Shown here: piece after piece, positions 649 through 42,720 of the stretch
Layout of the letters: every line of letters begins with the position of its first letter
How positions within the stretch are numbered: position 1 is the stretch's first letter
From: a virus
Length of the DNA stretch: 49,956 bases
Direction: 5' to 3' (one strand)
Virus record (IMG/VR): IMGVR_UViG_3300035698_021428
Notes under the pieces: generated by a model
The model's database searches: none
Told to the model about the DNA's origin: nothing
What the model saw: the letters and a program-made list of their open reading frames with translations, nothing else
Program-made: the position numbers and the translations under genes

Positions 649-1803
649 ATGACAACACCTAATTGGACAGAAGACGTTAGAGCAAAAGGTAACACAAAAA
701 TTACCTGGGCCAATCATCTTTGCGATGACGAGCAAGCGAACGTTGTCGGTCGCGTCGTTTTTGTTCGATCATTCGGTTCGTTGACCTTCATCGTTATCCG
801 CGATGCGGCAGATAGTATACAGATTGGACTGAAGGGCAAGATTGCTCCGCCGCCGATGTGGAGCATTATCTCCGTTCATGGCGTAACTGGTAAGACCAAG
901 AAGGGCGAGCATACTGTTTGGACAGAGAAGTTTGAGTTGCTTGCTGAATGCAACGGAAATATGCCTGACAAGTTTCATGGCATCGAAAATGCTGAATACA
1001 TTTACAACAATAGGCCAGCGCATCTTATCGCTAATCCTGATCATTCTCATAATCTAATGATGCGTAGCCGAATTATTCGGGAGCTTCGTAGACGGCTTGA
1101 AGATGTTCATGCCTTTATGGAAGTCGAAACTCCCTTATTGAACGATGAACCTACAGGTGCCAATGCTAAGCCGTTCATAACTCATCATAATGCAGAGAGC
1201 GAAGACAAGTACCTGAGAATTGCTCTTGAGGTTCCGCTGAAGAAAGCTATCATTGCAGGTTTTCCTAATGTTTTTGAAATCGGTCGTGTATTCAGGAATG
1301 AAGGCGTTGACCGAACTCACCGCCCTGAGTTTACGATGGTTGAGATGTATTCATCTCCTGGTACGCTACAGAACATGAAGGATCTGTTCATTGACCTTGT
1401 ATCTCATTTGCGTGGAGAGTATATCAAGATTCCGACCTATGAGTATGACGACCTTGTAGCTGAACATGGCGAAGATTTTGATGAGCATATGCAGGAACTT
1501 TGCTTCGTCGCTGGTCAGCCTCTTGAACAGACACCGCTTTGCAAGGCTCGTGCTGATGGAAAGGCTGATAGGTTCGAGATCTTCGGTAGAGGCTTCGAGA
1601 TCGCCAACGCTTTTCAGGAGGTTCATACCGCCGAGGAACAGAGAGAGCGTCTTAGCGGCCAAACAGAAGGCTCTGATGACGGCTTGATTGGCGCTCTTGA
1701 GTACGGAATGGCTCCAACAGGCGGAATGGGTATCGGTATTGACCGATTGGTTATGTACCTGCTTGAAATAAACAATGTAAGAGACGTAATTCTTTTTCCA
1801 TAA
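649..1803 (+). CDS. lysS: lysyl-tRNA synthetase-like class II aminoacyl-tRNA synthetase, compact (384 aa)
   Basis: N-terminal OB-fold-like segment (VVGRVVFVRSFGSLTFIVIRD). Motif 2 'FEIGRVFRNEGVDRTHRPEFTMVEMY' is LysRS-type (FRNEG / H.PEFT). Motif 3 is 'GGMGIGIDRLVMYL'. About 120 aa shorter than bacterial LysS. Confidence 0.8.
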   Translation: MTTPNWTEDVRAKGNTKITWANHLCDDEQANVVGRVVFVRSFGSLTFIVIRDAADSIQIGLKGKIAPPPMWSIISVHGVTGKTKKGEHTVWTEKFELLAECNGNMPDKFHGIENAEYIYNNRPAHLIANPDHSHNLMMRSRIIRELRRRLEDVHAFMEVETPLLNDEPTGANAKPFITHHNAESEDKYLRIALEVPLKKAIIAGFPNVFEIGRVFRNEGVDRTHRPEFTMVEMYSSPGTLQNMKDLFIDLVSHLRGEYIKIPTYEYDDLVAEHGEDFDEHMQELCFVAGQPLEQTPLCKARADGKADRFEIFGRGFEIANAFQEVHTAEEQRERLSGQTEGSDDGLIGALEYGMAPTGGMGIGIDRLVMYLLEINNVRDVILFP

Positions 1804-1844: not shown

Positions 1845-2036
1845 ATGGCAATCAATGATATTAAGAAACTAGGAGATCAGCTAGCAGGGCTCAAGACTCC
1901 TCAGGAAGCTCGTCAAGTTGGGCAGTCGCTTGATGCTGCTCTCAATGGACAAGAACCGCCAACAGCAGGAGAAGCCATTACAAAGGATCCTGCGCCAACT
2001 CAGCCGCCTTTATCAGCGGCAGCACGCCATCAGTGA
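1845..2036 (+). CDS. hypothetical protein (63 aa), weak call
   Basis: ORF track only. No clear RBS. The 3' end overlaps the tRNA at 2025. Confidence 0.3.
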   Translation: MAINDIKKLGDQLAGLKTPQEARQVGQSLDAALNGQEPPTAGEAITKDPAPTQPPLSAAARHQ

Positions 2037-2113
2037 GCGGCAGGACGCTCACCAGCCTCCTAAGCTGGCTCCTTCGAGAGAAGGTTTCTAGGTTCGAATC
2101 CTAGTGATGGCGC
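2025..2113 (+). tRNA. non-canonical long-variable-arm tRNA; hand-read anticodon CCU (2059-2061); an 8-bp acceptor / 5-bp T stem (tRNA-Sec-like fold) is possible
   Basis: Acceptor cgccatca/tgatggcg. D stem gagcg/cgctc. Anticodon arm ccagc-ctCCTaa-gctgg. The 19-nt variable arm has stem ccttc/gaagg and a GAGA loop. T arm is ctagg-ttcgaat-cctag. Confidence 0.6.
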
Positions 2114-5707: not shown

Positions 5708-5736
5708 CATAATACAGACAATCAGAAGAGACGTAA

Positions 5737-5762
5737 GGCCTAGTTGAAAGACTAGGCTTTTT
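5737..5762 (+). terminator. rho-independent terminator
   Basis: Stem gcctagt/actaggc, loop tgaaag, then TTTTT. Confidence 0.8.
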
Positions 5763-5775
5763 CGTTTAACAGTAT

Positions 5776-5850
5776 GGCCGTCTACCAAAAATGGACAAAC
5801 GGCTCTGATTGCAAATCAGATGTGTGCGAGTTCGAGTCTCGCGGCGGCCT
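5776..5850 (+). tRNA. tRNA-Cys (GCA)
   Basis: Acceptor ggccgtc/ggcggcc. Anticodon arm tctga-ttGCAaa-tcaga. T arm gcgag-ttcgagt-ctcgc. Discriminator U. Confidence 0.8.
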
Positions 5851-5863
5851 TTGGAGAAATATC

Positions 5864-6052
5864 ATGAAAAAACCAACACTGGTTATAGGGACAATTGGAC
5901 ATGACGATCATGGAAAAACCAGCCTTACTCATGCCATGATGCTGAGAGCTAAAGCAAAAGGTAGAAACATAAACGTAGGTTGCGACATGGGCATGACTGA
6001 ACAAGGAAAATATCTGCTAGACAAAATATCTAGCATGAATAAAGATCAATAA
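5864..6052 (+). CDS. 62-aa EF-Tu N-terminal (P-loop / G1) fragment-like protein
   Basis: 'MKKPTLVIGTIGHDDHGKTSLTHAMMLRAKAKG' matches EF-Tu '[32 protein letters not shown]'. The ORF stops after about 60 codons, so no G3/G4 motifs or domains II/III are present. Confidence 0.55.
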   Translation: MKKPTLVIGTIGHDDHGKTSLTHAMMLRAKAKGRNINVGCDMGMTEQGKYLLDKISSMNKDQ

Positions 6053-6057
6053 AATTA

Positions 6058-6128
6058 GCAGGTATGGCATATTGGCTGTGCATCACTCTTCCAAGGTGAA
6101 TAAAGGAGTTCGATTCTCCTTACCTGCT
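6058..6128 (+). tRNA. tRNA-Gly (UCC)
   Basis: Perfect acceptor gcaggta/tacctgc. Anticodon arm tcact-ctTCCaa-ggtga. T arm aggag-ttcgatt-ctcct. Confidence 0.8.
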
Positions 6129-6491
6129 TTAGAAAGGAAAATTACAAACGAGTTCCAACCAATAGATAAAAGAGAATTTGATGGATGGCTTGACCCAAAA
6201 GGAAACTTCTATCAAACCCGATGTCATATAACATGGGCATCCGAAGATATAAAATACGAGAATAAAGAACTCTACAAAGCGTACAGGAAATGGTTCAGAC
6301 AAAGAAAATGCTTATCGAGTGAAACAGCGGTTGAATTTTTGATGAAGTATCATGGTTGGTGGAAGAGATCATCGATCGCAAATAGCAAATTGTGGTTGGG
6401 AGAAATGCCAGCTACTACTGCTCAAAGAAGATACATCAACAACGACATGGGCGAAAGACAGGATAACGGATATTTTGAAAAAGGATATTAG
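6072..6491 (+). CDS. hypothetical protein, start unresolved
   Basis: Open frame from the ORF track. Its TTG start lies inside tRNA-Gly, and no ATG/GTG/TTG occurs for about 95 codons after the tRNA end. The product '...FDGWLDPKGNFYQTRCHITWASEDI...' is not recognised. Confidence 0.4.
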   Translation: MAVHHSSKVNKGVRFSLPALERKITNEFQPIDKREFDGWLDPKGNFYQTRCHITWASEDIKYENKELYKAYRKWFRQRKCLSSETAVEFLMKYHGWWKRSSIANSKLWLGEMPATTAQRRYINNDMGERQDNGYFEKGY

Positions 6492-6498
6492 GTAAAAA

Positions 6499-6570
6499 GC
6501 GAGATTGATGTTAATGGTAGCATGACTGACTTCCACTCAGTTCGTATCAGTTCAAATCTGGTATCTCGCA
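6499..6570 (+). tRNA. second tRNA with UCC anticodon (tRNA-Gly-like)
   Basis: Acceptor gcgagat/atctcgc. D stem atgt/gcat. Anticodon arm actga-ctTCCac-tcagt. T arm atcag-ttcaaat-ctggt. Discriminator A. Confidence 0.7.
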
Positions 6571-6679: not shown

Positions 6680-6762
6680 GCTGATGTGAGCCGAATTGGT
6701 AAGGCAGCACTCTTGTAAAGTGCCGAGGAAACTCACTGCAGGTTCGAGTCCTGTCATCAGCT
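6680..6762 (+). tRNA. long-variable-arm (class II-like) tRNA; hand-read anticodon UGU (6714-6716)
   Basis: Perfect acceptor gctgatg/catcagc. Leu/Tyr-like D loop gaattggtaa. Anticodon arm gcact-ctTGTaa-agtgc. The 14-nt variable arm has stem gag/ctc and a GAAA loop. T arm gcagg-ttcgagt-cctgt. Confidence 0.6.
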
Positions 6763-7031: not shown

Positions 7032-7382
7032 TTAGCATTTCTGGTTATGTCTATTTTTTCTACCATTGCCTTTATTTAGATTACCGTAATTCGGCGTAAG
7101 AGAGTGACAATTAGGGCATAGTATTTCCAAATTAGTTTCTACATTATTTTTGTAGTTTCCATCTTTATGATGTATAGTAAGGGGCTTTTTGTTTGTAATT
7201 TTGTTTACTCTATCCCAATTACATTTTTCGCATTTTTCTCCTCGAATCAAATAAAGATATCTTCTAACAAAAGGTGAAATATTCTCGCCAGCTAGACCTG
7301 TTTTTTGTCCATTTTTCCATTTGCTAACATTCGTTTTAAAAACAAATTCCGAACTACATTTACGAGAGCAACATTTATTCAA
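7032..7382 (-). CDS. HNH homing-type endonuclease (116 aa)
   Basis: 'HHKDGNYKNNVETNLEILCPNCHS' HNH motif plus N-terminal Cys pairs. Free-standing inside the tRNA island. Confidence 0.85.
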   Translation of the reverse strand: MNKCCSRKCSSEFVFKTNVSKWKNGQKTGLAGENISPFVRRYLYLIRGEKCEKCNWDRVNKITNKKPLTIHHKDGNYKNNVETNLEILCPNCHSLTPNYGNLNKGNGRKNRHNQKC

Positions 7383-7452: not shown

Positions 7453-7553
7453 GTCTGCGTAGCTCAACGATAGAGCGCCCAACCTGCGATACAGTGTGCC
7501 CTTGGGAGACTGTCAGCTATGGGATGTTGCTGGTTCGAATCCAGTCGCAGACT
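7453..7553 (+). tRNA. tRNA-like gene (101 nt) with normal acceptor, D and T arms but a ~46-nt irregular anticodon region; anticodon not assignable by eye
   Basis: Acceptor gtctgcg/cgcagac. Arg-like D arm gtagctcaacgatagagc. T arm gctgg-ttcgaat-ccagt. Between them, cccaa...(a/t)tggg encloses the hairpin acagt-gtgcccttgggag-actgt. Confidence 0.5.
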
Positions 7554-7886: not shown

Positions 7887-8705
7887 TTATTCTGCATATG
7901 TTCTACGATACCAACCTTCATCTTGTTTGTGTTTAGATTCATTTAAGAACCAAGTGTAGTTACCTTTTTCTACAGATCCGTCTAACTTCTCGCTTCTAGC
8001 GGAACCATCTAAGAATCCAAAGTTGTTCTTATGATCTCCGTGCCAGTCGCCGTTGACAATATCTTTCTCGTATTTTTCTTCATCTGTATATCTACCTGAA
8101 TCCATCTGCGCCGCATCGCCGAGGACTATAAATCGAGATGGAACTGTCATGATATTGTGTATTTTCATTCGTTCGGTATAATTTCCGCCGCTACGATAAA
8201 GATTTTCAAACCCTTTTTTCGAACCTATATCACAATATAACCAGTCATTTGTAAAGTAACTTGTACCTAAAGCTCTCCCAACTGTGTGTTGATCTTGCTC
8301 ATTATGCCAAACAGTAGGCTCGCCGCTAGCGTAGTAACTTGTCCCGTTGTCTAACGGGCATGCAAAGATTTCTCCTCGTAAGCCAGTTGGGTAATATGCA
8401 TTTACTGGTCGAGCCTCTCTAAGAGTAAAGATATCTAAATCTGGATCATCAATAGCATCAAGAGATCCGCCCCACATCCATCGAACATTTCTTTCATAGT
8501 GCTCATCTGAAACAGGTACATTTTCATCATTTGAATCTGCATACATCGCCCAAGAAAGCAAATGCTGTCTTTGGTTGGATAAGCACTTAAGATTCATGGC
8601 AGTTTTTCTAGCAGAAGCAAGAGACGGAAGAAGAATAGCTATTAGAAGAGCTATGATGGATATAGAAACCAGCAACTCGATGAGGGTAAAACCTTGTTTG
8701 CGCAT
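7887..8705 (-). CDS. prepilin-type N-terminal cleavage/methylation domain protein (DUF1559-like pseudopilin), 272 aa
   Basis: 'MRKQGFTLIELLVSISIIALLIAILLPSL' is the type IV pilin-like leader plus hydrophobic helix. 'ARKTAMNLKCLSNQRQ' and the C-terminal 'HKNNFGFLDGS' resemble the DUF1559 family. Confidence 0.8.
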   Translation of the reverse strand: MRKQGFTLIELLVSISIIALLIAILLPSLASARKTAMNLKCLSNQRQHLLSWAMYADSNDENVPVSDEHYERNVRWMWGGSLDAIDDPDLDIFTLREARPVNAYYPTGLRGEIFACPLDNGTSYYASGEPTVWHNEQDQHTVGRALGTSYFTNDWLYCDIGSKKGFENLYRSGGNYTERMKIHNIMTVPSRFIVLGDAAQMDSGRYTDEEKYEKDIVNGDWHGDHKNNFGFLDGSARSEKLDGSVEKGNYTWFLNESKHKQDEGWYRRTYAE

Positions 8706-11158: not shown

Positions 11159-11241
11159 GGTGGCTATGGCAGATTGGTAATGCACCTGGTTGTGGACCAG
11201 GAACCGTAAGGTTTATGCGGGTTCAAATCCCGTTAGTCACC
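11159..11241 (+). tRNA. tRNA-His (GUG) with encoded G-1 and an unusual 15-nt variable arm
   Basis: 5' g-gtggcta resembles E. coli tRNA-His GGUGGCUA. Anticodon arm cctgg-ttGTGga-ccagg. Variable arm aacc-gtaa-ggtt-tat. T arm gcggg-ttcaaat-cccgt. C73. Confidence 0.7.
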
Positions 11242-11249
11242 CTTTAGTT

Positions 11250-11672: not shown

Positions 11673-12300
11673 ATGAGAATCGAGAAACAAGCAAAAGGCG
11701 TTAGACTACTCATGAACGACGAGGCTAAGAACCGGAGGTTGGTTCATCAATGCTTGCGTTGAAGCATCAGAAGCCGCTGGCTTCAATGAAATACTGCTTC
11801 CGCTCATTGAGCCAGAAAGTATCTATGAAGAAAAAGCGGGCACTGAGATTCTTAATCAAATGTACACCTTCAAAGACAAGGCAGGAAGAAACCTCTGTCT
11901 AAGACCCGAAGGTACTGCTACTGTCCAACTTGTTGCGCAGAAAATGCGGAACATGAAAGATGTGAAGCTATGGTATGAAACTCGTTGTTGGCGATACGAG
12001 CAGCCGCAGGCTGGGAGATACCGAGAATTCACTCAGTTCGGCGTAGAGTGGCTGAACCCCCGAAACCCTTCAGAGGCCCGAGAAAGTCTAGAAACGCTCG
12101 CCAGAGCGATTGTAGAGCGGCTGGGAGTTGATTACGAGTGGAACGGAACTGCCAAACGAGGATTGGCGTACTATATTGAAGATGGTTTTGAACTAAGCGT
12201 TCCGTCGCTTGTCGCTCAGAAGCAGGTGATTGGCGGTGGGGCTTATACTGAAGGCATCGGATTCGCCGTTGGCGTAGATCGTATTGCGTTGGCAATGTGA
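11673..12300 (+). CDS. histidyl-tRNA synthetase-like class II core (HisRS/HisZ-like, ~210 aa, no anticodon-binding domain), interrupted by a +1 frameshift near 11735-11745; possible pseudogene
   Basis: RBS plus ATG 11673 gives 29 codons, then TGA at 11760. The +1 frame continues with 'FINACVEASEAAGFNEILLPLIEP', 'LRPEGTA', motif 2 'RYEQPQAGRYREFTQFGVE', 'GGGAY' and motif 3 'GFAVGVDRIALAM'. Confidence 0.7.
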
Positions 12301-20069: not shown

Positions 20070-21881
20070 ATGATTATTGAACGTCAGTTTGAAAGCGCAT
20101 TTTATCATGCTCCCATTGGATTCGCTATCGTCTCTTTCGAAGGATTGTTTTTACGAGTCAATAAGGCTCTCGAAGATCTTCTTGGCTACTCAGAAGAAGA
20201 ACTACTACGAATAACTTTCTATGACATAACTCATCCTGATGAACAAATACTCGGTAGGGAATGTATCGCAGAACTTATGAGCGGCGAGAAAGATTTTTGC
20301 CAGTTCGAAAAACGGTACATCCACAAAAACGGTCAATCAATATGGTGCCTGCTCAACACTTCCGTTGTTCGCAACGAGCGGAATGAACCTGTACATCTAG
20401 TTTCTCAAATACTAAACATACACGAGAAAAAAGAAGTTGATCTAAAACTACATAGAGAAAAACAACAGACTCAAAAAATACTTGATGCTATGGACTCTTT
20501 TATCTGGCATAAAGATACCAATAACAATATTCTTAGAACCAATAAAAAGGTAGCAGACAGTCTTGGCCTTAGAAGATCTGATATTGAAGGTCATTGTTCA
20601 ACTGAGTTTTACCCTATGGAATCGAAAAAACCGATATTTGGAATAACAGAACCAGTCTCTACCAAGAATGGCAAGAAATGGGTTTCAACTGACAAGATTC
20701 CAATGTTTGATGATGATGGAGAAGTTACAGGCATACTCGTTGTTTCAACTGATATAACCGAGATTAAACAACAAGAGCAAAAGCTTGAAGAGTATAGCAG
20801 TAGGCTTGAGGTTGCTCTCGATGCTGGCAATATAGGTATTTGGATATGGTATCCTAAAGAAAATCGTCTTGAATGGGATGATCGGATGTTCGATCTTTAT
20901 GGTAGAAAGAAAGATGATTTCAACGGAACTGTTGAAGACTGGTCTCGTTCTTTGGTTGAAGAAGACAGAGACAATGCCTGTGATAACATAGATCAATCGT
21001 TAGAGAAGGGCGTCCCGTTTATTAGCGAGTTTAGAATTCTAAAAAACGGAGAAATTCGGCACATTACAGCTTATGCGCTTCTTGAGTTAGATGACGAAGG
21101 CGAAATTGAAAGCATGATTGGCGCAAATTACGACATAACCGATATGAAGCGGACTGAGGCCAATCTAAGGAGATCCAATGAGGATCTTGAAAGGTTCGCC
21201 TATGCTGCGTCGCACGACCTTAGAGAGCCTCTTAGAACGATCAAGGGTTTTGCTGACCTGTTAGATTCTAAGTACAGCGACGGTTTTGATGAGACTGCTG
21301 AAAAGTACATGGCCTTCATAAAGCAAGGTTGTCTAAAAATGGAAACCCTCATTAACAGCCTGCTTGCTTATTCCAGAGTTGACAGAGATATGGAGTCTGA
21401 CGAAGTAGATGTCGATATGAATGCCACTGTCAGGACAGTATGCGAATCTTTGATGGCAAAAATAGCAGAGAATGATGCAGACATAGAATGGGATAAAAAT
21501 TTACCAGTAATACAGTCAAATTCTAATCTGATGTTTCAGCTATTGCTAAATCTTATAGGCAATGCGGTGAAGTTTAAAAGCGAAGACAGACGATGCAAGG
21601 TATGTATTACTTGCGAAAACTATGATACTGATGACGAGTTTTTAAAGTTTTGTGTCAGAGATAATGGTATAGGTATCGAGGAAAAATTCCAAGATCGTAT
21701 ATTTGAAATCTTTCAACGATTACATGACAGGTCTATGGAAGGGACAGGCGTTGGTTTGGCTCTTTGCAAGAAAATAGTAGAGAATTTTAATGGAAAGATA
21801 TGGGTGGAATCTGAGTATGGAAAAGGATCGTTATTCTGTTTTACACTCCCTAGGGGAAAGACTATCAATAAGAATAACTAA
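20070..21881 (+). CDS. cytoplasmic multi-PAS sensor histidine kinase (603 aa)
   Basis: Three PAS-like repeats. H-box 'FAYAASHDLREPLRTIKGF'. N box 'LLLNLIGNAVKF'. G1 'VRDNGIGIE'. G2 'GTGVGLALCKKIV'. No TM segment. Confidence 0.9.
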   Translation: MIIERQFESAFYHAPIGFAIVSFEGLFLRVNKALEDLLGYSEEELLRITFYDITHPDEQILGRECIAELMSGEKDFCQFEKRYIHKNGQSIWCLLNTSVVRNERNEPVHLVSQILNIHEKKEVDLKLHREKQQTQKILDAMDSFIWHKDTNNNILRTNKKVADSLGLRRSDIEGHCSTEFYPMESKKPIFGITEPVSTKNGKKWVSTDKIPMFDDDGEVTGILVVSTDITEIKQQEQKLEEYSSRLEVALDAGNIGIWIWYPKENRLEWDDRMFDLYGRKKDDFNGTVEDWSRSLVEEDRDNACDNIDQSLEKGVPFISEFRILKNGEIRHITAYALLELDDEGEIESMIGANYDITDMKRTEANLRRSNEDLERFAYAASHDLREPLRTIKGFADLLDSKYSDGFDETAEKYMAFIKQGCLKMETLINSLLAYSRVDRDMESDEVDVDMNATVRTVCESLMAKIAENDADIEWDKNLPVIQSNSNLMFQLLLNLIGNAVKFKSEDRRCKVCITCENYDTDDEFLKFCVRDNGIGIEEKFQDRIFEIFQRLHDRSMEGTGVGLALCKKIVENFNGKIWVESEYGKGSLFCFTLPRGKTINKNN

Positions 21882-22302
21882 AATACTTCTAGTTGAAGAT
21901 AACCCTGCGGATATAGAACTAACCAAAGAAGCTCTGAAATGCAAAACATGTCAACCTAGCTTACATGTTGTTACTGATGGAGAAAAAGCTATACAGTTTC
22001 TCCTAAACGAGGGAGATTACAAGGATTCTCCTAGACCTGATATTATTTTTTTGGATCTCAACCTTCCAAAAATGTGCGGAAAAGAGGTTCTTTCTATCAT
22101 AAAATCGAACGATGAATTGAAAAGTATACCTGTTATCGTTTTAACAACTTCTGAAAATGAGATTGACATAAATCAGACGTACCAAATGCATGCTAATTGC
22201 TATATTAGAAAACCTGTTGATTTTGAGTCTTTCAGAGAAGCTATACATTCAACAAAGAGTTTTTGGTTTACAGTTGCTAAACTACCGGAAAGCGAGAAGT
22301 AG
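21817..22302 (+). CDS. stand-alone CheY-like response-regulator receiver
   Basis: 'ILLVEDNPADIELTKEAL...PDIIFLDLNLPKMCG...PVIVLTTS...HANCYIRKPVDF'. The start is ATG 21817 or 21790, overlapping the kinase 3' end. Confidence 0.85.
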   Translation: MEKDRYSVLHSLGERLSIRITKILLVEDNPADIELTKEALKCKTCQPSLHVVTDGEKAIQFLLNEGDYKDSPRPDIIFLDLNLPKMCGKEVLSIIKSNDELKSIPVIVLTTSENEIDINQTYQMHANCYIRKPVDFESFREAIHSTKSFWFTVAKLPESEK

Positions 22303-22304
22303 CA

Positions 22305-22745
22305 ATGGACACGACTAGCGTTCTTCTTCTTGATGATGATCATGCATTTGCAAATTTGTTCAAAGAACACCTAACTGATCACGCCAAGGATCACTCAAAT
22401 ATAGAGCTTACTCACGTTGATTCGCTAAAAGCTATCGAGCTAGAGCAGCCTTTTGATATTTATTTTATTGATCACAGGCTCTACGGAAGACCTGCTTCCA
22501 TTGAAATTGTAGAAAGATTAAAAAACGCCGGTTTCGGTGGAAAGATTTTTGTTGTTTCTAAATATGGTGATTTTGATCTTCTCAAAGAACTCATGAAGCT
22601 GGGAATAGACGGGTTCATTGATAAAGATGAGATAAATTACGAAGAACTTGTCAGATTCATTGATAGTTTAAATGCTACTAAGTCTCTGCTTCGTAACCTG
22701 AACAATAAATTCGAAGAGCTAAAAAAGAAGCCTACAGACAGGTGA
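22305..22745 (+). CDS. second receiver-domain-like protein (146 aa), divergent
   Basis: 'VLLLDDDHAFANLFKEHL...FDIYFIDHRL...FVVSKYGD'. Starts 2 nt after the previous stop. Confidence 0.65.
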   Translation: MDTTSVLLLDDDHAFANLFKEHLTDHAKDHSNIELTHVDSLKAIELEQPFDIYFIDHRLYGRPASIEIVERLKNAGFGGKIFVVSKYGDFDLLKELMKLGIDGFIDKDEINYEELVRFIDSLNATKSLLRNLNNKFEELKKKPTDR

Positions 22746-23436: not shown

Positions 23437-26127
23437 ATGCAAGACAATGATTCCGGCGCAATCCGAGGATCATCAGGCGATCTTTTGATCCCTGAAGGTT
23501 CATATGCTCATTTTTAAGGACTAACAACTGGCGCAATTTCGACCAAGGTTGGGCCTGCAAGCGTTTCGCAATCGGGGCAAGAACGTCCTGTTGCGTTCGA
23601 TCCAGCAAGGCGACAATTCATTGAAGTTAGCCGAGAAAGTTCGGTCAAACTCAATGTTATCGCTGATGAAACCAGTTATGTTATTCTTTCAAATCCGTGC
23701 ATTGCAGTCGCAGACGGCGATGACCAGCTTATTTTTCCAGGATCTTCGGACAAGATTCCCAATCAAGGTCTAGAGAGCGGTCGAAAAGTTGTGGTTCATG
23801 GACCTGTCGAATTTTCGCTTTGGCCTGGACAGACTGCAGAAGTTGTCCCGGGTCATGCTCTTCGCTCAAATGAATATCTTGAACTTGTTGTTTATGATGC
23901 TGATGAAGCAAAAGCCAACTGGGAATCAGCCTCCGTTGTTGAGACCAAGAAAACTGGCGGCGATAAAGAAGATAAAGATGATACGCAGGTTACGTCTACT
24001 GCCCCTGCTGATCTTCTTATGGGACAACGATTGGTTGTCAAGGGAACTGAGGTTTCATTCTATCGTCCTCCAACTGGTATACAGGTTGTTCAGAACGAAG
24101 ACAATATCTTTATTCGACAAGCTGTTTCCCTTGAATTACTTGAATACTGTATTCTTATCGACGAAAATGGCAACAAAAGGTATGAGAAGGGACCAGCAGT
24201 TGTTCTTCCTCGTCCATCTGAACGATTTGAAAAAAGCTCTAGAGGCAATAGAAAATTTAGAGCCATTGAGCTTCAAGACCAGGCAGGCGTTCATATCAAA
24301 GCGCTCAAGACCTACCAGGATGACGACGGAAAAGATCGCAAAGCTGGTGATGAATTCTTCTTGACGGGCAAAGATCGTCCTATCTACTACCCTCGCGAAG
24401 AAGAAGCCGTTATTCCTTATAGCGATGGCGAAAAGATTCACTTCGCTGTTGCGGTTCCCAAGGGGGAAGGCCGCTACGTTATGAATAAGACCACCGGTGA
24501 GATCGCAACGATCATCGGCCCCAAGATGCTTCTTTGCGATCCGACTAATGAAGTCATCGTTCGTCGCATCCTTACTGACAGACAAAGTAATGATTGGTAT
24601 CCTGGTAATGATAACTCTAGGCAATACAATCGCAATCTTCGAGAGATTCAGGAAGCTGCAGGAACGGCTGGTGATTTTGTTGACGATACATCAACACGGC
24701 AGGCAGCAACCAGGGGGCTTCATTCGCTGCGAGAAAAAGGCAATCCAAGAGTAGGCGGAGCTTCGTTCTCAAGTATGTCCGCTTCCGCCGGATCGGAACG
24801 AGGTTTTGAAAGCTTCGAACAAGCTGGTTCAGCAATGATGGGAGAACTAGATCGGCCATCAAGCTATACAGAACCCAAAAGCATTACTCTTGATACACGT
24901 TTTGCAGGAGTTCCTGGTATTGAGCTTTGGACAGGCTACACCGTTATGGTCGTTGACAGAGAAGGAAACCGCCGAATCGTCAGCGGTCCAACCAATATTC
25001 TGCTCAATTATGACGAGTCATTAGAAATCATAGAACTTTCTACCGGCAAACCAAAATCAACAAAAGGATTGATTCGCACAGTATATCTTCGCAGAGATAA
25101 TAATAAGGTTTCCGATTATGTTGAAGTTGAGACAAAAGACCATGTGAAAGTACAAGTAAAACTGTCATTCCTGGTCAATTTTGTTGAAGACAATCCTAAT
25201 GACGATCAGGATGATACCGATTATCAAGAGCGTTGGTTTGCTAGCGAAAACTATGTCAAGCTTCTTTGCGATCATGTTCGCTCGATTCTTAAGGGCGAAG
25301 CTAAAAAGCACGATATCAATAACTTTTATATCAACTCAACATCTATCATCAGAGATATCATTCTTGGTAATCGTCAGGAAGATGGCAGAACAGGTATGTT
25401 CTTTGAACATAATGGTATGCATGTTATCGATGTTGAGGTTCTTGGAACAGAAATTCTTGATCACAGCATTGCTTCGCTACTTACTGGCTCTCAGCGAGAA
25501 GCAGTTGAATCAAGTATTCGTCTTCAGTCTGCCGAAAGAACGCTTAATGTAACTGAGCAAATGGAAGCGATGTCTCGTAAAGAAGCAGTTGCTAAGAATG
25601 AGACCAAGAAGCACGCACACGATCTAACGATAGAAAGCATTGGAAGAACTCTGAAGGAGTCCCTAGCAGACATATCTTCAGAACAAGACAAGTCCGTTCA
25701 TAGGCTTACTGCTCGTACTGCCGAAGCTGAAGCTACTAAAATGGCAAACGTTATTGAGGCCGAAGCTGCGGTCGCAGGAAGCGAGATTGAGCGAGAAGAT
25801 CAGAAACTCGATCATGAACAGAAAATCTTAGAAGCAGAAGAAATAGCTAGGCTTGACAAGGAAGCGATTGAAACCGAAGTCAAGGCCACAGTTGATAAGC
25901 TCAAGGCCCTTGAAGGTTCGGGGTTGACCGACGTTCTTGCTACGCTTGGTCGAGAAGACTTCTTGACCCGTATAGCTGAATCCAGCAATCTTGAACGATT
26001 GATTGGCGGAGCTAGCGTCCAAGATACTTTGACCGGAATTTTCGGCGTTGAGTCGCCTATTGCTAAGGCGTTCGTTGCTATCAAGGCAGGAAAGCCGCTT
26101 GCTCAATCTTTGCTCAATAGCGACTAG
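23437..26127 (+). CDS. major vault protein (MVP) homolog: vault repeats, SPFH-like shoulder and cap-helix (~896 codons) with one in-frame TAA at 23515-23517
   Basis: GGAGA RBS plus ATG 23437. 'LLIPEGSYAHF*GLTTGAISTKVGP..ERPVAF' vs human MVP '[25 protein letters not shown]..ERVLF'. 'GDEFFLTGKDRPIYYPREEEAVI' vs '[21 protein letters not shown]'. 'YVMNKTTGEIATIIGPKMLL' vs '[20 protein letters not shown]'. E/A/K-rich C-terminal helix. The track ORF 23791 starts at an internal GTG. Confidence 0.8.
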
Positions 26128-26302: not shown

Positions 26303-26655
26303 GGGGGCGATATGGAATCGCTTCAGTAGGGTAGGAAGGATTGTTGCGAGCCGGGGAACCATGCTTAGGCCCCGTAAAAAAGTATGGAATAATTAGTTGC
26401 CAACAGCAACCCACTCCGCATCGCTGCTTGACAGCGGTGCCTGCAAGTCCTGAACGCCGATACGGGATACGCAGAAGATTTTCGGCTGGTCGTCTGAACA
26501 ACTGTTTCAACCAACAGACGATGAGATAAAGGATGAGACCGCTCCCTGTCGCAGACTGTCGCTGGTCGGCTAGGGGCTAAGATAAAACATCGACTACGCT
26601 CGTAGAAACGCCCAACAAACTACTGAACACGGCGGTTCGAATCCGCCCGCCTCCA
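26303..26655 (+). ncRNA. ssrA: tmRNA (SsrA), tag ANSNPLRIAA
   Basis: 5' GGGGGCGAUAUGGAAUCGC.. pairs with 3' ..GGCGGUUCGAAUCCGCCCGCCUCCA (G3:U70, T arm). The tag ORF GCC AAC AGC AAC CCA CTC CGC ATC GCT GCT TGA lies at 26399-26431. Confidence 0.85.
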
Positions 26656-31079: not shown

Positions 31080-32729
31080 ATGGCAACCAAACTTGGAAAA
31101 GGCGAGTATCCCAGCGATCATTCGCCAGAAGACTTTAAATGCTTTGGCCCTCCTGCTCAGGAAGACGGTCAGTTTGACGGCATGATGATGGCTGACATGG
31201 GCTGCTTCAAGCAAGATGGTACAGATTCCAACAAATTCTACCATGGCGCAGTTGTTCAATCCAAAAAAGATGATAGCTGGTATGCCTACTATGAATGGGG
31301 CAGAACTGGGAAAGGTTCTTCTGATAAGCAATTCGTTTGTTGTTCGTCGAAAGAAGAAGCTGAACAAGTATTCTGCAAGCAGATGCACTCCAAAAATGAC
31401 AAGCGAGGCGAATGGGTCAAGATAGGCAGTAAAGACATTCTAAGAGCGAAGACAGGCAAAGACTGCTACCTTATCCGTCCGCTCGCAAAGCGATCTCATG
31501 GCCTTCCAGACGCTCAGACAATCGTCCATGACGATAGCGGCAAAGCTGGCAGCGCCGTCGCTAAGAAAACAACCAAAAAGACCGGAAAGAAAACCAGCAA
31601 AAAGATTGCTAAGAAAAAATCAAACGTTGATCCAAAGACTCTTAGTCTTATGAAGGATATGAACGTTGCAGCGGTTGAATTTACTCGCTCGCAGGTTGAT
31701 AGCGATGCAGTCCCAACTCAAGGCGTTATCGATGAAGGCAGAGATGTTCTTATCGAAGCGGAAAAAAGAGTTAAGAAAATTGGATCAAAGCTTGAAGAAC
31801 AAATTAGCGATAGAGACCTTCGAGATCTAACGTATCATCTCTATTCTCGAATCGGGAAGCCAAAGCCTCTCAATACGCTTGAATCTGCCTGGATTCTTTC
31901 TCAAGACAACATCATGCGTTGGCGAATGGACCTTGATACATTTGAGCAGGCATTATATGCTCTTGACCTAGGCATTGGCAGCGATACTCAGAATACCTTT
32001 GATCCGTTCAATGGCATGAATATTGAGATGATTCATCTCGACCCGACTAAAACGGCTGAAGGTCAATTTATTCACAATTGGATGCCTGGCGCAACGAAAA
32101 ACGTCCACGGGCACGTTGGCGACATGAGTATTGTCAACGCATGGGGCGTTCGTCAAACTGATTTTGCACCAAAATTTGAAGCAACTGCTGCAAAGATTGG
32201 TAATCGCAATTTCACCCCATCTGACAAACCTATCAAGCAGCCCCGAAAACGATCTGATATCTCGCCAGAAATGGCTAAACTATTCGATCAAGCAAATGTC
32301 AATCTCTTATTCCATGGAACAAGATCTGTCAATGTTCCTGGCATTCTTCGCACAGGGCTAAGGCTCCCCAGAGAGCTTGTTGGAGTTGTCCTTACTGGCG
32401 CAATGTTTGGACCCGGTATCTATTGGGCCGATGATTGGAAAAAATCAGACGGTTACACTTCTCGACCAGGAACTTATTGGTCAAGAGGCGGGGGACAGGT
32501 CAAAGGTCGCAAGGCTTTTATGTTTGTTGCCAATGTTGCTCTTGGCAATCCTCATATTGCTCGCGGTCCTCAAGGATATACTGCTCCGCCGAAAGGTTGC
32601 GATTGTGTTGCAGGTCTTGCTAATAAGAGCAGCGTAGCCAACAACGAATGGATTGTTTACGACAGTATGCAAAATTCTCTTACATATCTTATTGAATACG
32701 AAGTTTCAGGCAGCAGCCGTCGCTGGTAA
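31080..32729 (+). CDS. poly(ADP-ribose) polymerase-like protein: WGR, Lys-rich linker, helical regulatory domain and PARP catalytic domain (549 aa)
   Basis: WGR 'FYHGAVVQSKKDDSWYAYYEWGRTGKG'. Linker 'AKKTTKKTGKKTSKKIAKKKS'. Catalytic H-Y-E triad: 'LLFHGTRSVNVPGIL', 'FGPGIYWADDW' and 'NNEWIVYDSMQNSLTYLIEYEV' (PARP1: '[22 protein letters not shown]'). Confidence 0.9.
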   Translation: MATKLGKGEYPSDHSPEDFKCFGPPAQEDGQFDGMMMADMGCFKQDGTDSNKFYHGAVVQSKKDDSWYAYYEWGRTGKGSSDKQFVCCSSKEEAEQVFCKQMHSKNDKRGEWVKIGSKDILRAKTGKDCYLIRPLAKRSHGLPDAQTIVHDDSGKAGSAVAKKTTKKTGKKTSKKIAKKKSNVDPKTLSLMKDMNVAAVEFTRSQVDSDAVPTQGVIDEGRDVLIEAEKRVKKIGSKLEEQISDRDLRDLTYHLYSRIGKPKPLNTLESAWILSQDNIMRWRMDLDTFEQALYALDLGIGSDTQNTFDPFNGMNIEMIHLDPTKTAEGQFIHNWMPGATKNVHGHVGDMSIVNAWGVRQTDFAPKFEATAAKIGNRNFTPSDKPIKQPRKRSDISPEMAKLFDQANVNLLFHGTRSVNVPGILRTGLRLPRELVGVVLTGAMFGPGIYWADDWKKSDGYTSRPGTYWSRGGGQVKGRKAFMFVANVALGNPHIARGPQGYTAPPKGCDCVAGLANKSSVANNEWIVYDSMQNSLTYLIEYEVSGSSRRW

Positions 32730-32743
32730 AAATTAGGAAAATT

Positions 32744-34927
32744 ATGCAAACTATTATTCGTCAAAGTCTTTCTGAATCAGAACTCCTTGATATGGCTAGA
32801 CAAGGTTGCACAGAAGACGCTATTCAAGATGATGGTAAAAAATTAACTCATTATCAAAATTCTGGCACCAATTATGCAGAGTCTCTTGGATTAAATCCTA
32901 AACGATATGAAATCGTTGCAAATGTAATCTATCCATCAAGAAACAGTAGAAATTATTTCTTCGGTCATCATAACACTCAAGAAATACCTGATAATGCAAA
33001 ATTGTTCTTAAAAGCTTCTTACAGCCGAGAACACTATAATGATAAATCAAAAGAAACAGTTCACAGATCTAAACTTTTGTTGAAAAACTTTTGTTTCAAG
33101 CATATCCAGCGACCACGGCATGACGGGTATAACTACGTTAGTCTAGACAAACAAAAATTTATTGCATGCGGAACCATTGAAATCGATGGCAAAGATATAC
33201 TCCTTCAAGGCGATTTTTCATTCTTCGTTGAAGCATTCGGCGTAACTCTAACCAAAGAACTTAAGCTTGACTGGGGCCAAGACAGTTCTCCAATGTTCGA
33301 TGATCTCCCCGCAACTATTTCCTGTATTAGTTATCTAAACGCTTGCTCTGGTCCCTATGGCTACTATGAAGAAAAACGGGATAGAAATAATTCTCAGTTC
33401 AATTTTGATTCCAGTGGCATATATGCCCTTGTTAGTAATTTCGGGTCTGACAAAACTATTATCAGCAATTTTCTTCATGGAATTCTTGCTGCAGGAATCG
33501 TTCCTCAAGCTATAGAGCCCAAAGGAATCTCCAAGATCTATAATAAAATCAGTGAGTATGCCGAATCATTGATGAAGACAGACCCGTATGCGGCATGTTG
33601 TTATCGACAGATTGCTAGGGAAGCAAAACGAACAATCAATAGCGTTAAGGTATCAGTTGTCTATAATGAACTTTTCGCTGGCGTTGACTCGGCAGAAACT
33701 CTCAAGTCTGTTCTTGAACCGTTTGAAGAATCGATGAGCGACCCAAGCAAATACAATGCGTTTGAGAATGCTCTTTCTGGTCTAGGAGCATTCAAGGATC
33801 GTCGTCGTAAAGCTCTAAAAAGTCAAGGGAACAGGGCTCTAACGAAAATCATGGAAGAGAAAGAATCTCTGACCTTTGATTTGAAAAAACACAAACGTCT
33901 TAATAAAGCTATTGAAGCTGGTGACATTCCCATCGGAACATTTTTCCGCAAAAAAGAACAGTTCTTTATTCTCAATGACAACTGGGATCTTTGGGAAAAG
34001 ATGCTCGCGCTCGATTACGATGTTACTGTCAAATTAGCTCAGGAAGTTTCTCGCAGGTCAACCTACGAGAAGGATCTGATGTCCTACTTCTATTTCGTAT
34101 TGGTCGATCTGCCAGCATACCTCAAGAAGCATACAGGATACAAATGGTCATGTATGCCAAGACTGGTTGACAGCGAAAGAGAACTCGAAGCGCCCAAAGT
34201 TGATGAGACAGGAACCGCTCGTTCTCGCTCTGCTCTAACGCCGATCGTTGACAACGATGCTAAAACCGTAACGGTTCCCTATGCGTCTCTCGCGATCGCC
34301 GGACGACAGACAACATATTGCTACAGTCATACCTATATGGCGATTCGCAAAGGTCTCATGTTCAATGGCAACGTCTCCACAGAAGATCTGGGAGAAAAGC
34401 TTAATGGTCGAGACGACTATGGGCTCATGTTCTATACATTGACTGGATCTTTCCAAGGTAGAGGATACCCGACATTTCTTATTATCTTCGAACGTCATTC
34501 TAAAAATGGCAGTAAAGATACAACTGTCCACTTTCATCGGGTTCATCCCAGCCGTTCCAAAGATGGCGACTATAACCCTATTCATAACTGGATTCGGGTC
34601 TGTTATAATTGGATGGCTGGCAATATCAACGCCAAGCGAATTAGGGCGCAGCAAGGCGATTTGTTCTTTGTTTCGACAGACAAGACTCCTGAGTTCGATA
34701 CTCGCGTTATGCAGTATGACAATCACAGGTTTGATAAGCCTGTTGGTTTCTCTCCATACGAAGGCAAGGATAAGAACATCCTTGGCTATATGAAGCTTGA
34801 CGAACCACTGACGCTAAACCATCACGAGCATGATAACGAGAATGTTCCTGCTGGGATCTTCGAGGTACGGCAATGCCGTAGCTGGGAAGCCAACCCCAAG
34901 GGCATTTGGACGATTAATATCGATTGA
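32744..34927 (+). CDS. large uncharacterised protein (727 aa) immediately downstream of the PARP
   Basis: AGGAAA RBS. 14-nt gap after the PARP stop. No PARG (GGG..QEE), macro or other motif recognised by eye. Confidence 0.7.
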   Translation: MQTIIRQSLSESELLDMARQGCTEDAIQDDGKKLTHYQNSGTNYAESLGLNPKRYEIVANVIYPSRNSRNYFFGHHNTQEIPDNAKLFLKASYSREHYNDKSKETVHRSKLLLKNFCFKHIQRPRHDGYNYVSLDKQKFIACGTIEIDGKDILLQGDFSFFVEAFGVTLTKELKLDWGQDSSPMFDDLPATISCISYLNACSGPYGYYEEKRDRNNSQFNFDSSGIYALVSNFGSDKTIISNFLHGILAAGIVPQAIEPKGISKIYNKISEYAESLMKTDPYAACCYRQIAREAKRTINSVKVSVVYNELFAGVDSAETLKSVLEPFEESMSDPSKYNAFENALSGLGAFKDRRRKALKSQGNRALTKIMEEKESLTFDLKKHKRLNKAIEAGDIPIGTFFRKKEQFFILNDNWDLWEKMLALDYDVTVKLAQEVSRRSTYEKDLMSYFYFVLVDLPAYLKKHTGYKWSCMPRLVDSERELEAPKVDETGTARSRSALTPIVDNDAKTVTVPYASLAIAGRQTTYCYSHTYMAIRKGLMFNGNVSTEDLGEKLNGRDDYGLMFYTLTGSFQGRGYPTFLIIFERHSKNGSKDTTVHFHRVHPSRSKDGDYNPIHNWIRVCYNWMAGNINAKRIRAQQGDLFFVSTDKTPEFDTRVMQYDNHRFDKPVGFSPYEGKDKNILGYMKLDEPLTLNHHEHDNENVPAGIFEVRQCRSWEANPKGIWTINID

Positions 34928-42648: not shown

Positions 42649-42720
42649 GCTTCGTTAGCTCAATGGTAGAGCAATAGTTTCTAAAACTACAGGTTGTCGG
42701 TTCGAGTCCGACACGAGGCA
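42649..42720 (+). tRNA. suppressor tRNA, anticodon CUA (reads UAG); body resembles tRNA-Lys
   Basis: Acceptor gcttcgt/acgaggc. D arm gctc-aatggta-gagc. Anticodon arm atagt-ttCTAaa-actac (anticodon 42681-42683, A27-C43 mismatch). T arm gtcgg-ttcgagt-ccgac. A73. Confidence 0.75.

Follow-up and report, generated by a model that had tools for sequence, protein, structure and literature searches.

In many bacteria the tuf gene of elongation factor EF-Tu is co-transcribed with upstream tRNA genes, as in the thrU-tyrU-glyT-thrT-tufB operon of Escherichia coli, which includes tRNA-Gly(UCC) and tRNA-Thr(UGU), and EF-Tu itself is borrowed by the Qbeta replicase and modified by toxins. The gene considered here, designated mini-EF-Tu, lies between two tRNA genes at 5864..6052 of a viral DNA of 49,956 nucleotides (nt) from IMG/VR (record IMGVR_UViG_3300035698_021428; the whole of this stretch is called the window below), and encodes 62 amino acids (aa), the first part of which resembles EF-Tu.

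Several described systems come close to such a gene. The protein gp247 of Caulobacter phage Colossus is a 98-aa N-terminal subdomain of EF-Ts and was proposed to be a translational modulator (PMC3556154). Engineered P-loop beta-alpha polypeptides of 40-55 residues bind nucleoside triphosphates (NTPs) and nucleic acids, and perform strand separation and phosphoryl transfer (10.1101/2020.07.30.228619; PMC10119929). Among defence systems, Lit and the caspase-like protease of type IV Thoeris cut EF-Tu in switch I, the sites being R45/R59 and G59-I60 (10.1101/2024.10.24.620036), and EF-Tu is a structural component of Avs7 (PMC13581612). The tRNA regions of phages are reported to be able to serve as anti-defence loci (PMC13096335). 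In the literature, phage mini-proteins consisting of the EF-Tu N-terminus were not found described, the only trace being the key 'Tu, elongation factor' in the genome-map figure of phage Aaphi23 (PMC3391216).

An EF-Tu-like reading frame between two tRNA genes

The open reading frame (ORF) and the elements around and within it are as follows:

5864..6052, plus strand: mini-EF-Tu ORF, ATG at 5864, TAA stop at 6050-6052, 62 aa, MKKPTLVIGTIGHDDHGKTSLTHAMMLRAKAKGRNINVGCDMGMTEQGKYLLDKISSMNKDQ
5776..5850, plus strand: tRNA-Cys (GCA), found by ARAGORN and by Rfam (46.4 bits)
6057..6129, plus strand: tRNA-Gly (UCC), found by ARAGORN and by Rfam (57.9 bits)
5853..5856, plus strand: Shine-Dalgarno-like GGAG, 7 nt 5' of the ATG at 5864, read from the sequence
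5735..5760, plus strand: terminator-like hairpin with an 11-bp stem and a T run after it (consensus scan, pattern match only)
5870..5977, plus strand: EF-Tu-like segment, ORF residues 3-38, with strand beta1, P-loop and helix alpha1 (Pfam, PDB, hhalign, AlphaFold2)
5897..5920, plus strand: Walker A (G1 P-loop) GHDDHGKT, residues 12-19 (alignments)
5978..6049, plus strand: family-specific C-terminal half, residues 39-62 (alignments, profile comparison with EF-Tu, AlphaFold2)
5978-6010, plus strand: motif GCDMGMTEQGK, residues 39-49, family consensus LGCDPGMTxEG[RK], followed by a predicted helix
6015..6035, plus strand, inside the 3' end of the ORF: perfect 9-bp inverted repeat with a 3-nt loop, TGCTAGACAAAATATCTAGCA, 15 nt from the stop

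The hairpin at 5735..5760, located 15 nt 5' of tRNA-Cys, is a putative terminator that would close the upstream unit. The 62-aa ORF had been predicted at this place, 13 nt after tRNA-Cys and 5 nt before tRNA-Gly, by a sequence-only reading; the ORF is present, both flanking tRNAs are real, and the gaps measure 13 and 4 nt, respectively.

The Pfam profile GTP_EFTU aligned with ORF residues 4-38 over profile positions 2-36 of 188 (E=4.6e-5), with a score of 23.5 bits that falls short of the Pfam gathering score of 26.5. A phmmer search of the ORF against all PDB sequences gave E=2e-5, with EF-Tu making up 59 of the 60 sequences listed, and EF-Tu is the best match of the ORF among all solved structures and Pfam families. 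Comparison of the family profile described below with EF-Tu by hhalign yielded a probability of 95.5-96.1%, the alignment stopping at residue 27-39. The EF-Tu stretch matched in these searches (residues ~9-33, and up to 45 when compared with Thermus-type EF-Tu) comprises strand beta1, the G1 P-loop and helix A, and the ORF N-terminus KPTLVIGTIGH together with GHDDHGKT parallels the 'KPH.N.GTIGH' strand and GHVDHGKT of EF-Tu. When the E. coli EF-Tu sequence, used as a probe only, was compared with the 50-kb window by tblastn, one significant match was obtained, at 5870-5938 (65% identity over 23 aa, E=7.5e-5); neither another piece of EF-Tu nor a full-length tuf was detected in any frame of the window (next best E=0.2).

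Beyond this segment the resemblance is lost. A hidden Markov model (HMM) of the C-terminal half revealed no detectable similarity of residues 39-62 to any part of EF-Tu, including G2 (switch I, RGITI) and G3 (DCPGH, DxxG), the best scores being negative and located elsewhere. G4 (NKxD), G5 (SAx) and domains II and III are absent, as the ORF stops at residue 62 and tblastn found no further piece in the window. Since the ORF fails every defining feature of EF-Tu but G1, its annotation as an elongation factor is not warranted; lacking the switch I threonine, DxxG, NKxD, SAx and domains II and III, its product cannot act as an elongation factor, carry aminoacyl-tRNA or be a ribosome-activated GTPase. 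The claim of the sequence-only reading that the ORF reproduces residues 1-40 of EF-Tu and then ends holds for the EF-Tu match and its G1 motif, and has to be corrected in its span, given above, and in its end, because residues 39-62 form a conserved family-specific extension.

A family of short relatives

With the single ORF as query, a word-index protein search gave no match, and the exact 62-aa sequence is absent from a collection of 15 billion proteins; the family emerged only in an exhaustive HMMER search of 1.84 billion representative proteins. This search returned 13 matches. Seven of these are small proteins of 66-108 aa whose alignments span essentially the full query and take in its C-terminal part, which is unlike EF-Tu. 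The best relative, P0001 (3.3e-9), is 50% identical over residues 3-54. Profile searches brought the family to about 20 short relatives of 57-108 aa in phage-like metagenomic contigs, and the members analysed are the window ORF, P0001, P0003-5, P0010-12, P0014-18, P0021, P0029, P0030, P0032 and P0033. The window ORF aligns with the other members end to end with 31-50% identity and holds G12, H16, G17, K18, T19, A24, C40, D41 and G48, and reciprocal tblastn searches from seven relatives gave matches at 5855-6046 of the window.

The members share an N-terminus of the form 'K(P)...(I/V)G.(I/L)G(H)..HGK[TS][ST]L..A', with the P-loop GxxxHGK[TS], in which G12, G17 and K18 are invariant and H16 is nearly so. 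Most also carry a second motif, '(K)G..V.LGCD(P)GMT.(E/D)G(R/K)..(L/M)(I/V)', which belongs to a family-specific strand-loop-helix, and five of them (P0015, P0018, P0030, P0032 and P0033) have 25-35 additional residues inserted between helix 1 and this motif. A search with the family profile detected EF-Tu at 1.9e-8, the first 58 matches all being EF-Tu, and 16 of 18 members individually match GTP_EFTU (E of 0.1 or better), so that the N-terminal half derives from EF-Tu in the whole family and not in the window copy only.

Three other derivations were considered. Identity of the second motif with EF-Tu switch I (collinear, APEE[KR] against TPEGR) and its origin from G3 by internal deletion (DCPGH against CDPGM) are both tempting to the eye, but neither is supported: the C-terminal HMM finds neither site and scores negatively in EF-Tu of both E. 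coli and Thermus, and the hhalign alignment ends at residue 27-39. A ParA-, MinD- or APS-kinase-like origin of 'KG..V.LGCD' was rejected, as it disagrees with the profile searches, which rank EF-Tu far first, and with the GTP_EFTU matches of the members.

A DNA pattern joining both motifs (HGKT...CDxxMT) recovered only the known contig and three chance matches from JGI metagenomes, and six chance matches, with no true member, from one genome each of 185,579 bacterial and archaeal species. The family is rare and has so far been seen only in phage-like contigs, not in cellular genomes as far as tested. A separate protein from JGI, P0034 (171 aa), is a reduced EF-Tu G domain without switch I.

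Selection on the protein

The closest pair of members with available DNA, P0010 (L009) and P0014 (L020), is 82% identical in amino acid sequence, with a proportion of synonymous differences (pS) of 0.73, i.e. saturated, a proportion of nonsynonymous differences (pN) of 0.12 and a ratio of the corresponding rates (dN/dS) of ~0.05 or less; the other member pairs with finite dS gave 0.13-0.55, the low ratio coming from a pair of relatives and not from the window copy. Conservation of the protein while synonymous sites are saturated indicates that the protein itself is under selection. The window copy has an intact frame, the GGAG ribosome-binding site and all residues that are invariant across the motif-bearing members, and its GC content (38%, and 34% at third codon positions) is like that of neighbouring genes; taken together, these features rule out a recently decayed tuf. 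They also make, along with the dN/dS of the pair, a strong argument against the ORF being a neutral relic or a spacer that acts in cis only. By all these sequence characters, the ORF is a genuine gene for a small protein that is under selection, and its product very probably functions in trans.

The origin of the ORF could still be imagined as that of an inert relic, i.e. a 5' fragment of tuf which hitchhiked with tRNA genes from a host tRNA-tuf operon and remained as a neutral spacer ORF. It is consistent with such a past that tRNA-Gly(UCC) and tRNA-Thr(UGU), both present in the tufB operon of E. coli, are directly downstream of the ORF, and that the Pfam score is below gathering. However, the relic is very improbable and largely refuted by the conservation of the protein across lineages despite the saturation described above, by the evolution of a conserved C-terminal motif that is not detectably derived from EF-Tu, and by the intact frame, GGAG, invariant residues and ameliorated composition of the window copy; no recognisable decayed remainder of tuf was found in the window, and the ORF is like the phage in composition. 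Of the two fates envisaged in the sequence-only reading, that of a decayed EF-Tu gene is contradicted by the lack of any other remnant in the 50-kb window, the neighbour-like composition, the existence of about 20 short relatives and the purifying selection in one pair, whereas that of a retained fragment agrees with the conserved small-protein family; action of the fragment as a decoy or regulator, also suggested there, is plausible. The checks proposed there were a GTP_EFTU profile search, which gave a significant match though one below gathering, and a test of conservation, which showed the short ORF to be conserved in relatives.

Predicted structure

AlphaFold2, supplied with an 18-sequence family alignment, predicts a strand at residues 5-7, the P-loop, a helix at 18-31, a strand at 35-37 and a helix at 46-61 (mean predicted local distance difference test score 80, predicted template modelling score 0.58). 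According to this model, the mini-protein is a minimal beta-(P-loop)-alpha-beta-alpha unit of ~60 residues. GHDDHGKT conforms to the Walker A pattern GxxxxGK[ST], and the predicted strand of the second motif ends in a conserved aspartate (hhhGCD), which gives it the look of a Walker B motif.

These features bring forward the possibility that mini-EF-Tu is an autonomous minimal P-loop protein, probably oligomeric, for which EF-Tu served only as raw material. It might bind NTPs or (p)ppGpp, or else attach to RNA or tRNA through their 5' phosphates or backbone, and it would fulfil an RNA- or tRNA-related task in the array. The strongest conservation is indeed at generic Walker A positions (G12, G17, K18 and T19) while the EF-Tu-specific V20 and D21 vary, the hhhGCD motif resembles Walker B, the members with an extra segment between helix 1 and the strand (P0015, P0018, P0030, P0032 and P0033) form a subfamily, the gene adjoins tRNA genes, and engineered polypeptides of 40-55 residues with a P-loop are active (10.1101/2020.07.30.228619; PMC10119929). 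On the other hand, the protein has no base-recognition motifs, its ligand binding is a prediction, and one subgroup has no GCD motif. The elements 'KP..(I/V)G.(I/L)GH' and the near-invariant histidine before GK are specific to EF-Tu rather than generic to P-loops, suggesting that more than phosphate binding was preserved. An autonomous P-loop protein seems unlikely, but is the main alternative to the explanation favoured below.

Genomic contexts and tRNA arrays

All contexts in which the mini-gene was recovered are phage-like: they include a 402-kb scaffold and encode HNH endonucleases, Mu Gam, a Toprim primase, an intein-bearing UvrD helicase, a Lar-like restriction-alleviation gene, small RF-1-domain proteins and strings of co-oriented small ORFs. 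In six of nine distinct contexts tRNA arrays hold or adjoin the mini-gene (mini), in the following order:

Window: Cys, mini, Gly
L007/L008: Cys, Cys, Met, two reverse-strand ORFs, mini, Lys, Ala
L010: Cys, Cys, Met, mini, Lys, Ala
L021: Met, Met, mini, Lys
L009: Leu, mini; ten tRNAs in 4.8 kb
L019: Asn, Thr, one ORF, mini

The tRNA-Cys of the window resembles, by alignment, the first tRNA-Cys upstream of the mini-gene in L007 and L010, and the HNH genes of the arrays are homologous between these loci, so that several loci share ancestry and are not independent observations. The second tRNA-Cys of L007 (9015..9099) and of L010 (1073..1157) is 85 nt long and has an 11-nt insert in the variable region.

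In three arrays the ATG of the mini-gene is located 1-2 nt past the last base of a tRNA (4186/4188 in L009, 1257/1260 in L010 and 397/399 in L021), which leaves no room for a Shine-Dalgarno sequence. These junctions imply, as far as can be judged from the nucleotide sequences, either a leaderless mRNA formed by tRNA 3' processing or a ribosome-binding site within the tRNA. The same layout might be read to mean that the locus acts in cis only, as a tRNA spacer, a processing substrate or a translated leader, the peptide being irrelevant; the tight packing of the window ORF between tRNAs (gaps of 13 and 4 nt), the 9-bp hairpin at 6015-6035 in its 3' end and the ATG abutting tRNA 3' ends in relatives would all suit such a role. 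It is nevertheless disfavoured and extremely improbable, considering that the amino acid sequence is conserved despite saturated synonymous sites and that the members in L001/L002, L003-6 and L020 are found without a tRNA on the DNA examined.

No protein partner is shared across the contexts. In L007 and L010 the mini-gene is followed by an ORF of 139 aa, but neither of these ORFs is homologous to the 139-aa ORF of the window.

The neighbourhoods also bear on the possibility that mini-EF-Tu is one half of a split NTPase, supplying the Walker A strand and helix that a phage or host protein is missing. EF-Tu cut in switch I by trypsin is listed in PDB as separate chains, including a 37-residue N-terminal chain (2hcj_A, 'trypsin-modified'), and 5i4r_C is a chain of 45 residues, which shows that the N-terminal part is able to form a module of its own. 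In L003-6 the mini-gene is located 29 nt upstream of a UvrD-type helicase gene, but this helicase has its own AAA_19/UvrD motifs, no neighbour is conserved across contexts, and in the window the EF-Tu tblastn search showed neither an N-terminally truncated EF-Tu nor another G domain without a P-loop. A split NTPase is improbable.

EF-Tu N-terminal mini-ORFs in other phages

A tblastn search against the INPHARED phages revealed further small ORFs with an EF-Tu-like start. ORF27 of Aaphi23 (59 aa), located in the nin region, corresponds to phrog_27465 of unknown function (positions 1-59, E=6e-46), and this group is matched by 14 of 21 mini-proteins through their EF-Tu part. The window ORF matches it at E=8.1e-7 with only profile positions 10-35 of 59 aligned, i.e. 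the EF-Tu-derived part, and by this alignment the two are related through the shared EF-Tu piece only. Gp88 of Pseudomonas phage Dolphis (92 aa) also has an EF-Tu-like start, and QPB08564 of Vibrio phage Va2 (195 aa) retains EF-Tu through EEKERGITV. Metagenomic singletons with an EF-Tu N-terminus include P0025, P0022/P0026/P0031 and P0035, the last of which (67 aa, on a 7.9-kb Logan contig) consists of EF-Tu residues 1-35 followed by two DnaJ-type CxxCxGxG zinc-finger repeats. Because the tails of these mini-ORFs are mutually unrelated, they look like separate captures, and it would seem that several phages have independently acquired the EF-Tu N-terminus in this form.

Other features of the window

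The window looks like a part of a large phage. It contains 13 tRNA genes predicted by ARAGORN and one more by Rfam, two class II synthetase-like ORFs, HNH endonucleases and dense co-oriented ORFs, most of them unannotated. The product of the large ORF 32744..34927 shares 33% identity over ~400 aa with a protein of the 402-kb metagenomic scaffold that also encodes a relative of the mini-gene. No structural hallmark gene was found in the window, no DNA match to it, near or distant, exists among INPHARED phages, and no relatives were found in IMG/VR via the mini-ORF or the neighbouring ORFs. The contig index contained no exact copy of the 62-aa ORF, of the synthetase-like ORF 649..1803 or of the prepilin-like ORF 7887..8705.

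Several tRNA genes of the window are unusual. Two tRNA-Gly(UCC) genes (6057..6129 and 6499..6570, plus strand) bracket ORF 6072/6135..6491, which matches no family and lacks an ATG start close to its 5' end; this pair may represent a duplication around an inserted gene. A 101-nt tRNA (7453..7553, plus strand) was detected by Rfam (46.9 bits) and missed by ARAGORN; it adjoins an HNH endonuclease ORF (7032..7382, minus strand) and probably carries an insert or intron. The tRNA-Arg(CCU) (88 nt, 2026..2113), tRNA-Thr(UGU) (83 nt, 6680..6762) and tRNA-His (83 nt, 11160..11242), tRNAs that are normally short, are oversized. Two tRNAs with a CUA anticodon (42649..42720 and 45505..45577, plus strand) are amber suppressors, labelled Pyl by ARAGORN. 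A shift of ORF boundaries by TAG recoding was considered and rejected: TAG terminates 9 of the 39 long ORFs under standard translation, so no global recoding is evident, and the mini-ORF ends in TAA.

Other genes for translation include a transfer-messenger RNA (tmRNA) gene (26303..26655, plus strand; Rfam 129.6 bits) with the tag peptide ANSNPLRIAA and a 384-aa ORF (649..1803) similar to class II synthetases of the Asp/Asn/Lys type. A HisRS-like catalytic core (tRNA-synt_His, 4.4e-14), truncated and without the anticodon-binding domain, is encoded at 11860..12300 (plus strand, the frame being open upstream to ~11760), about 540 nt downstream of tRNA-His and tRNA-Gln, and is a second cut-down translation protein beside tRNAs.

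The cargo of the window is unusual for a phage-like region, comprising a homologue of the Major Vault Protein (23791..26127; MVP shoulder, 5e-25), a protein with PARP catalytic and WGR domains (31080..32729) and a PAS histidine kinase (20070..22745) followed by two response-regulator receiver proteins. A 272-aa protein (7887..8705, minus strand) has an N-terminal prepilin-type methylation motif (N_methyl, 6.5e-8), an architecture typical of Planctomycetota and Verrucomicrobiota and that may hint at the host.

Proposed origin and mode of action

The explanation that we favour has, as a whole, a probability of about 0.5. A 5' piece of tuf would have been captured by a phage, possibly along with tRNA genes as they occur in tRNA-tuf operons, and then kept and remodelled. 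The mini-gene would be co-transcribed with the tRNAs of the array, as suggested by its junctions with them, and an mRNA of ~200 nt would be freed by RNase P and 3'-end processing of tRNAs, akin to tRNA punctuation; this mRNA would be leaderless or nearly so in L009, L010 and L021 and would have a 13-nt leader with GGAG in the window. The protein would act in trans, mimicking the G1/helix-A face of EF-Tu, and is predicted to bind phosphate still through the conserved GxxxHGK[TS]. In this way it might compete for a partner that normally recognises host EF-Tu; the likeliest such partner would be a component of host defence or a toxin that targets EF-Tu, the alternative being a partner within the translation apparatus. 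As an outcome, translation might be protected or tuned during infection, alongside the nearby tRNAs, tmRNA and synthetase-like genes. Mimicry specifically, with the protein working as a decoy or modulator, is a tentative suggestion to which we give somewhat less than an even chance.

Several points weigh against this explanation. The idea of mimicry is drawn only from the derivation of the sequence and its setting in the genome. In intact EF-Tu, strand beta1 and a large part of helix A are buried, so that an isolated copy need not present the same surface, and V20 and D21 of GHVDHGKT, which are residues specific to the ribosome-coupled GTPase of EF-Tu, are not conserved in the family. The members P0012, P0016 and P0017 form a subgroup without the GCD motif, and structure searches returned generic alpha/beta matches only. 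The three contexts without a tRNA on the DNA examined mean that the link with tRNAs is not obligatory, and several of the tRNA-linked contexts are of common ancestry. Finally, the places in switch I where Lit and the caspase cut were not detectable in the ORF when the C-terminal HMM was compared with EF-Tu, and the caspase of type IV Thoeris is promiscuous.

A wider scenario is conceivable, in which phages have repeatedly excised the first 30-45 residues of host EF-Tu and kept them as proteins in their own right. One lineage, which occurs mainly in the tRNA arrays of large phages, would have turned them into a natural 60-residue protein with Walker A and Walker-B-like motifs, serving as a phosphate binder or as a decoy for host factors or defence systems that engage EF-Tu, and translated in some genomes from an mRNA made leaderless by tRNA processing, a tRNA punctuation of bacterial viruses. 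This scenario is possible, and on balance we consider it doubtful.

Comparison with known systems

In its kind, mini-EF-Tu is not new, as truncated modules of host translation factors and mimics of host molecules are already known in phages; the family itself, its second motif, its link with tRNA arrays and the recurrence of EF-Tu N-terminal mini-ORFs in unrelated phages appear to be undescribed. Compared with EF-Tu (PF00009), ORF residues 3-38 correspond to EF-Tu residues ~9-45, whereas only ~10% of EF-Tu is present, the V-D pair of GHVDHGKT is replaced (GHDDHGKT in the ORF) and the C-terminal 24 residues are unrelated to EF-Tu.

ORF27 of Aaphi23 (phrog_27465) is likewise a small phage ORF with an N-terminus copied from EF-Tu, but it keeps EF-Tu residues 1-27 nearly unchanged, which points to a recent, separate capture, and it has another tail and is located in the nin region of a temperate phage with no tRNAs near. 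Colossus gp247 resembles mini-EF-Tu in that a phage keeps a small N-terminal module of a host elongation factor; it differs in deriving from EF-Ts and in being an interaction subdomain with a phenylalanine that inserts into EF-Tu, while mini-EF-Tu keeps an element of the nucleotide-binding core.

As in tRNA-tuf operons, the start of an EF-Tu coding sequence is found co-oriented and directly 3' of tRNAs in a cluster that contains tRNA-Gly(UCC) and tRNA-Thr(UGU). The order here is Cys, mini-gene, Gly, Gly, Thr, however, the tuf part is 62 codons long, and the spacers are of 1-13 nt instead of ~100 nt. The layout with an ATG abutting a tRNA suggests that in phages mRNA may be released by tRNA processing. 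Even if the protein should be inert, the locus would still record the entry and persistence of host tuf fragments in phage genomes.

With regard to defences that cut EF-Tu, the sites of Lit and type IV Thoeris lie immediately after the segment that the mini-protein keeps, and the mini-protein shows no detectable trace of the site sequence; the parts of EF-Tu bound by Avs7, domains II and III, are lacking in the mini-protein, and none of these three systems is linked to the mini-EF-Tu locus. Few proteins are as abundant and as contested in phage infection as EF-Tu. The mini-protein, a conserved product kept in tRNA arrays and consisting, in its EF-Tu part, of the phosphate-binding start, is a cheap-to-test candidate for a new form of interference with translation or with immunity directed at EF-Tu. 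If the wider scenario above is true, the mini-protein would represent a new class of phage counter-defence or translation modulators and a natural counterpart of the laboratory P-loop prototypes.

With these prototypes mini-EF-Tu shares its size, the Walker A motif and the predicted beta-(P-loop)-alpha-beta-alpha topology (10.1101/2020.07.30.228619; PMC10119929; PMC7758060). The prototypes are consensus-inferred laboratory constructs, whereas mini-EF-Tu is a natural, recently derived fragment known from sequence, and a natural, selected Walker A protein of 60 residues would bear on the minimal size of a functional P-loop, which has so far been addressed only with designed polypeptides.

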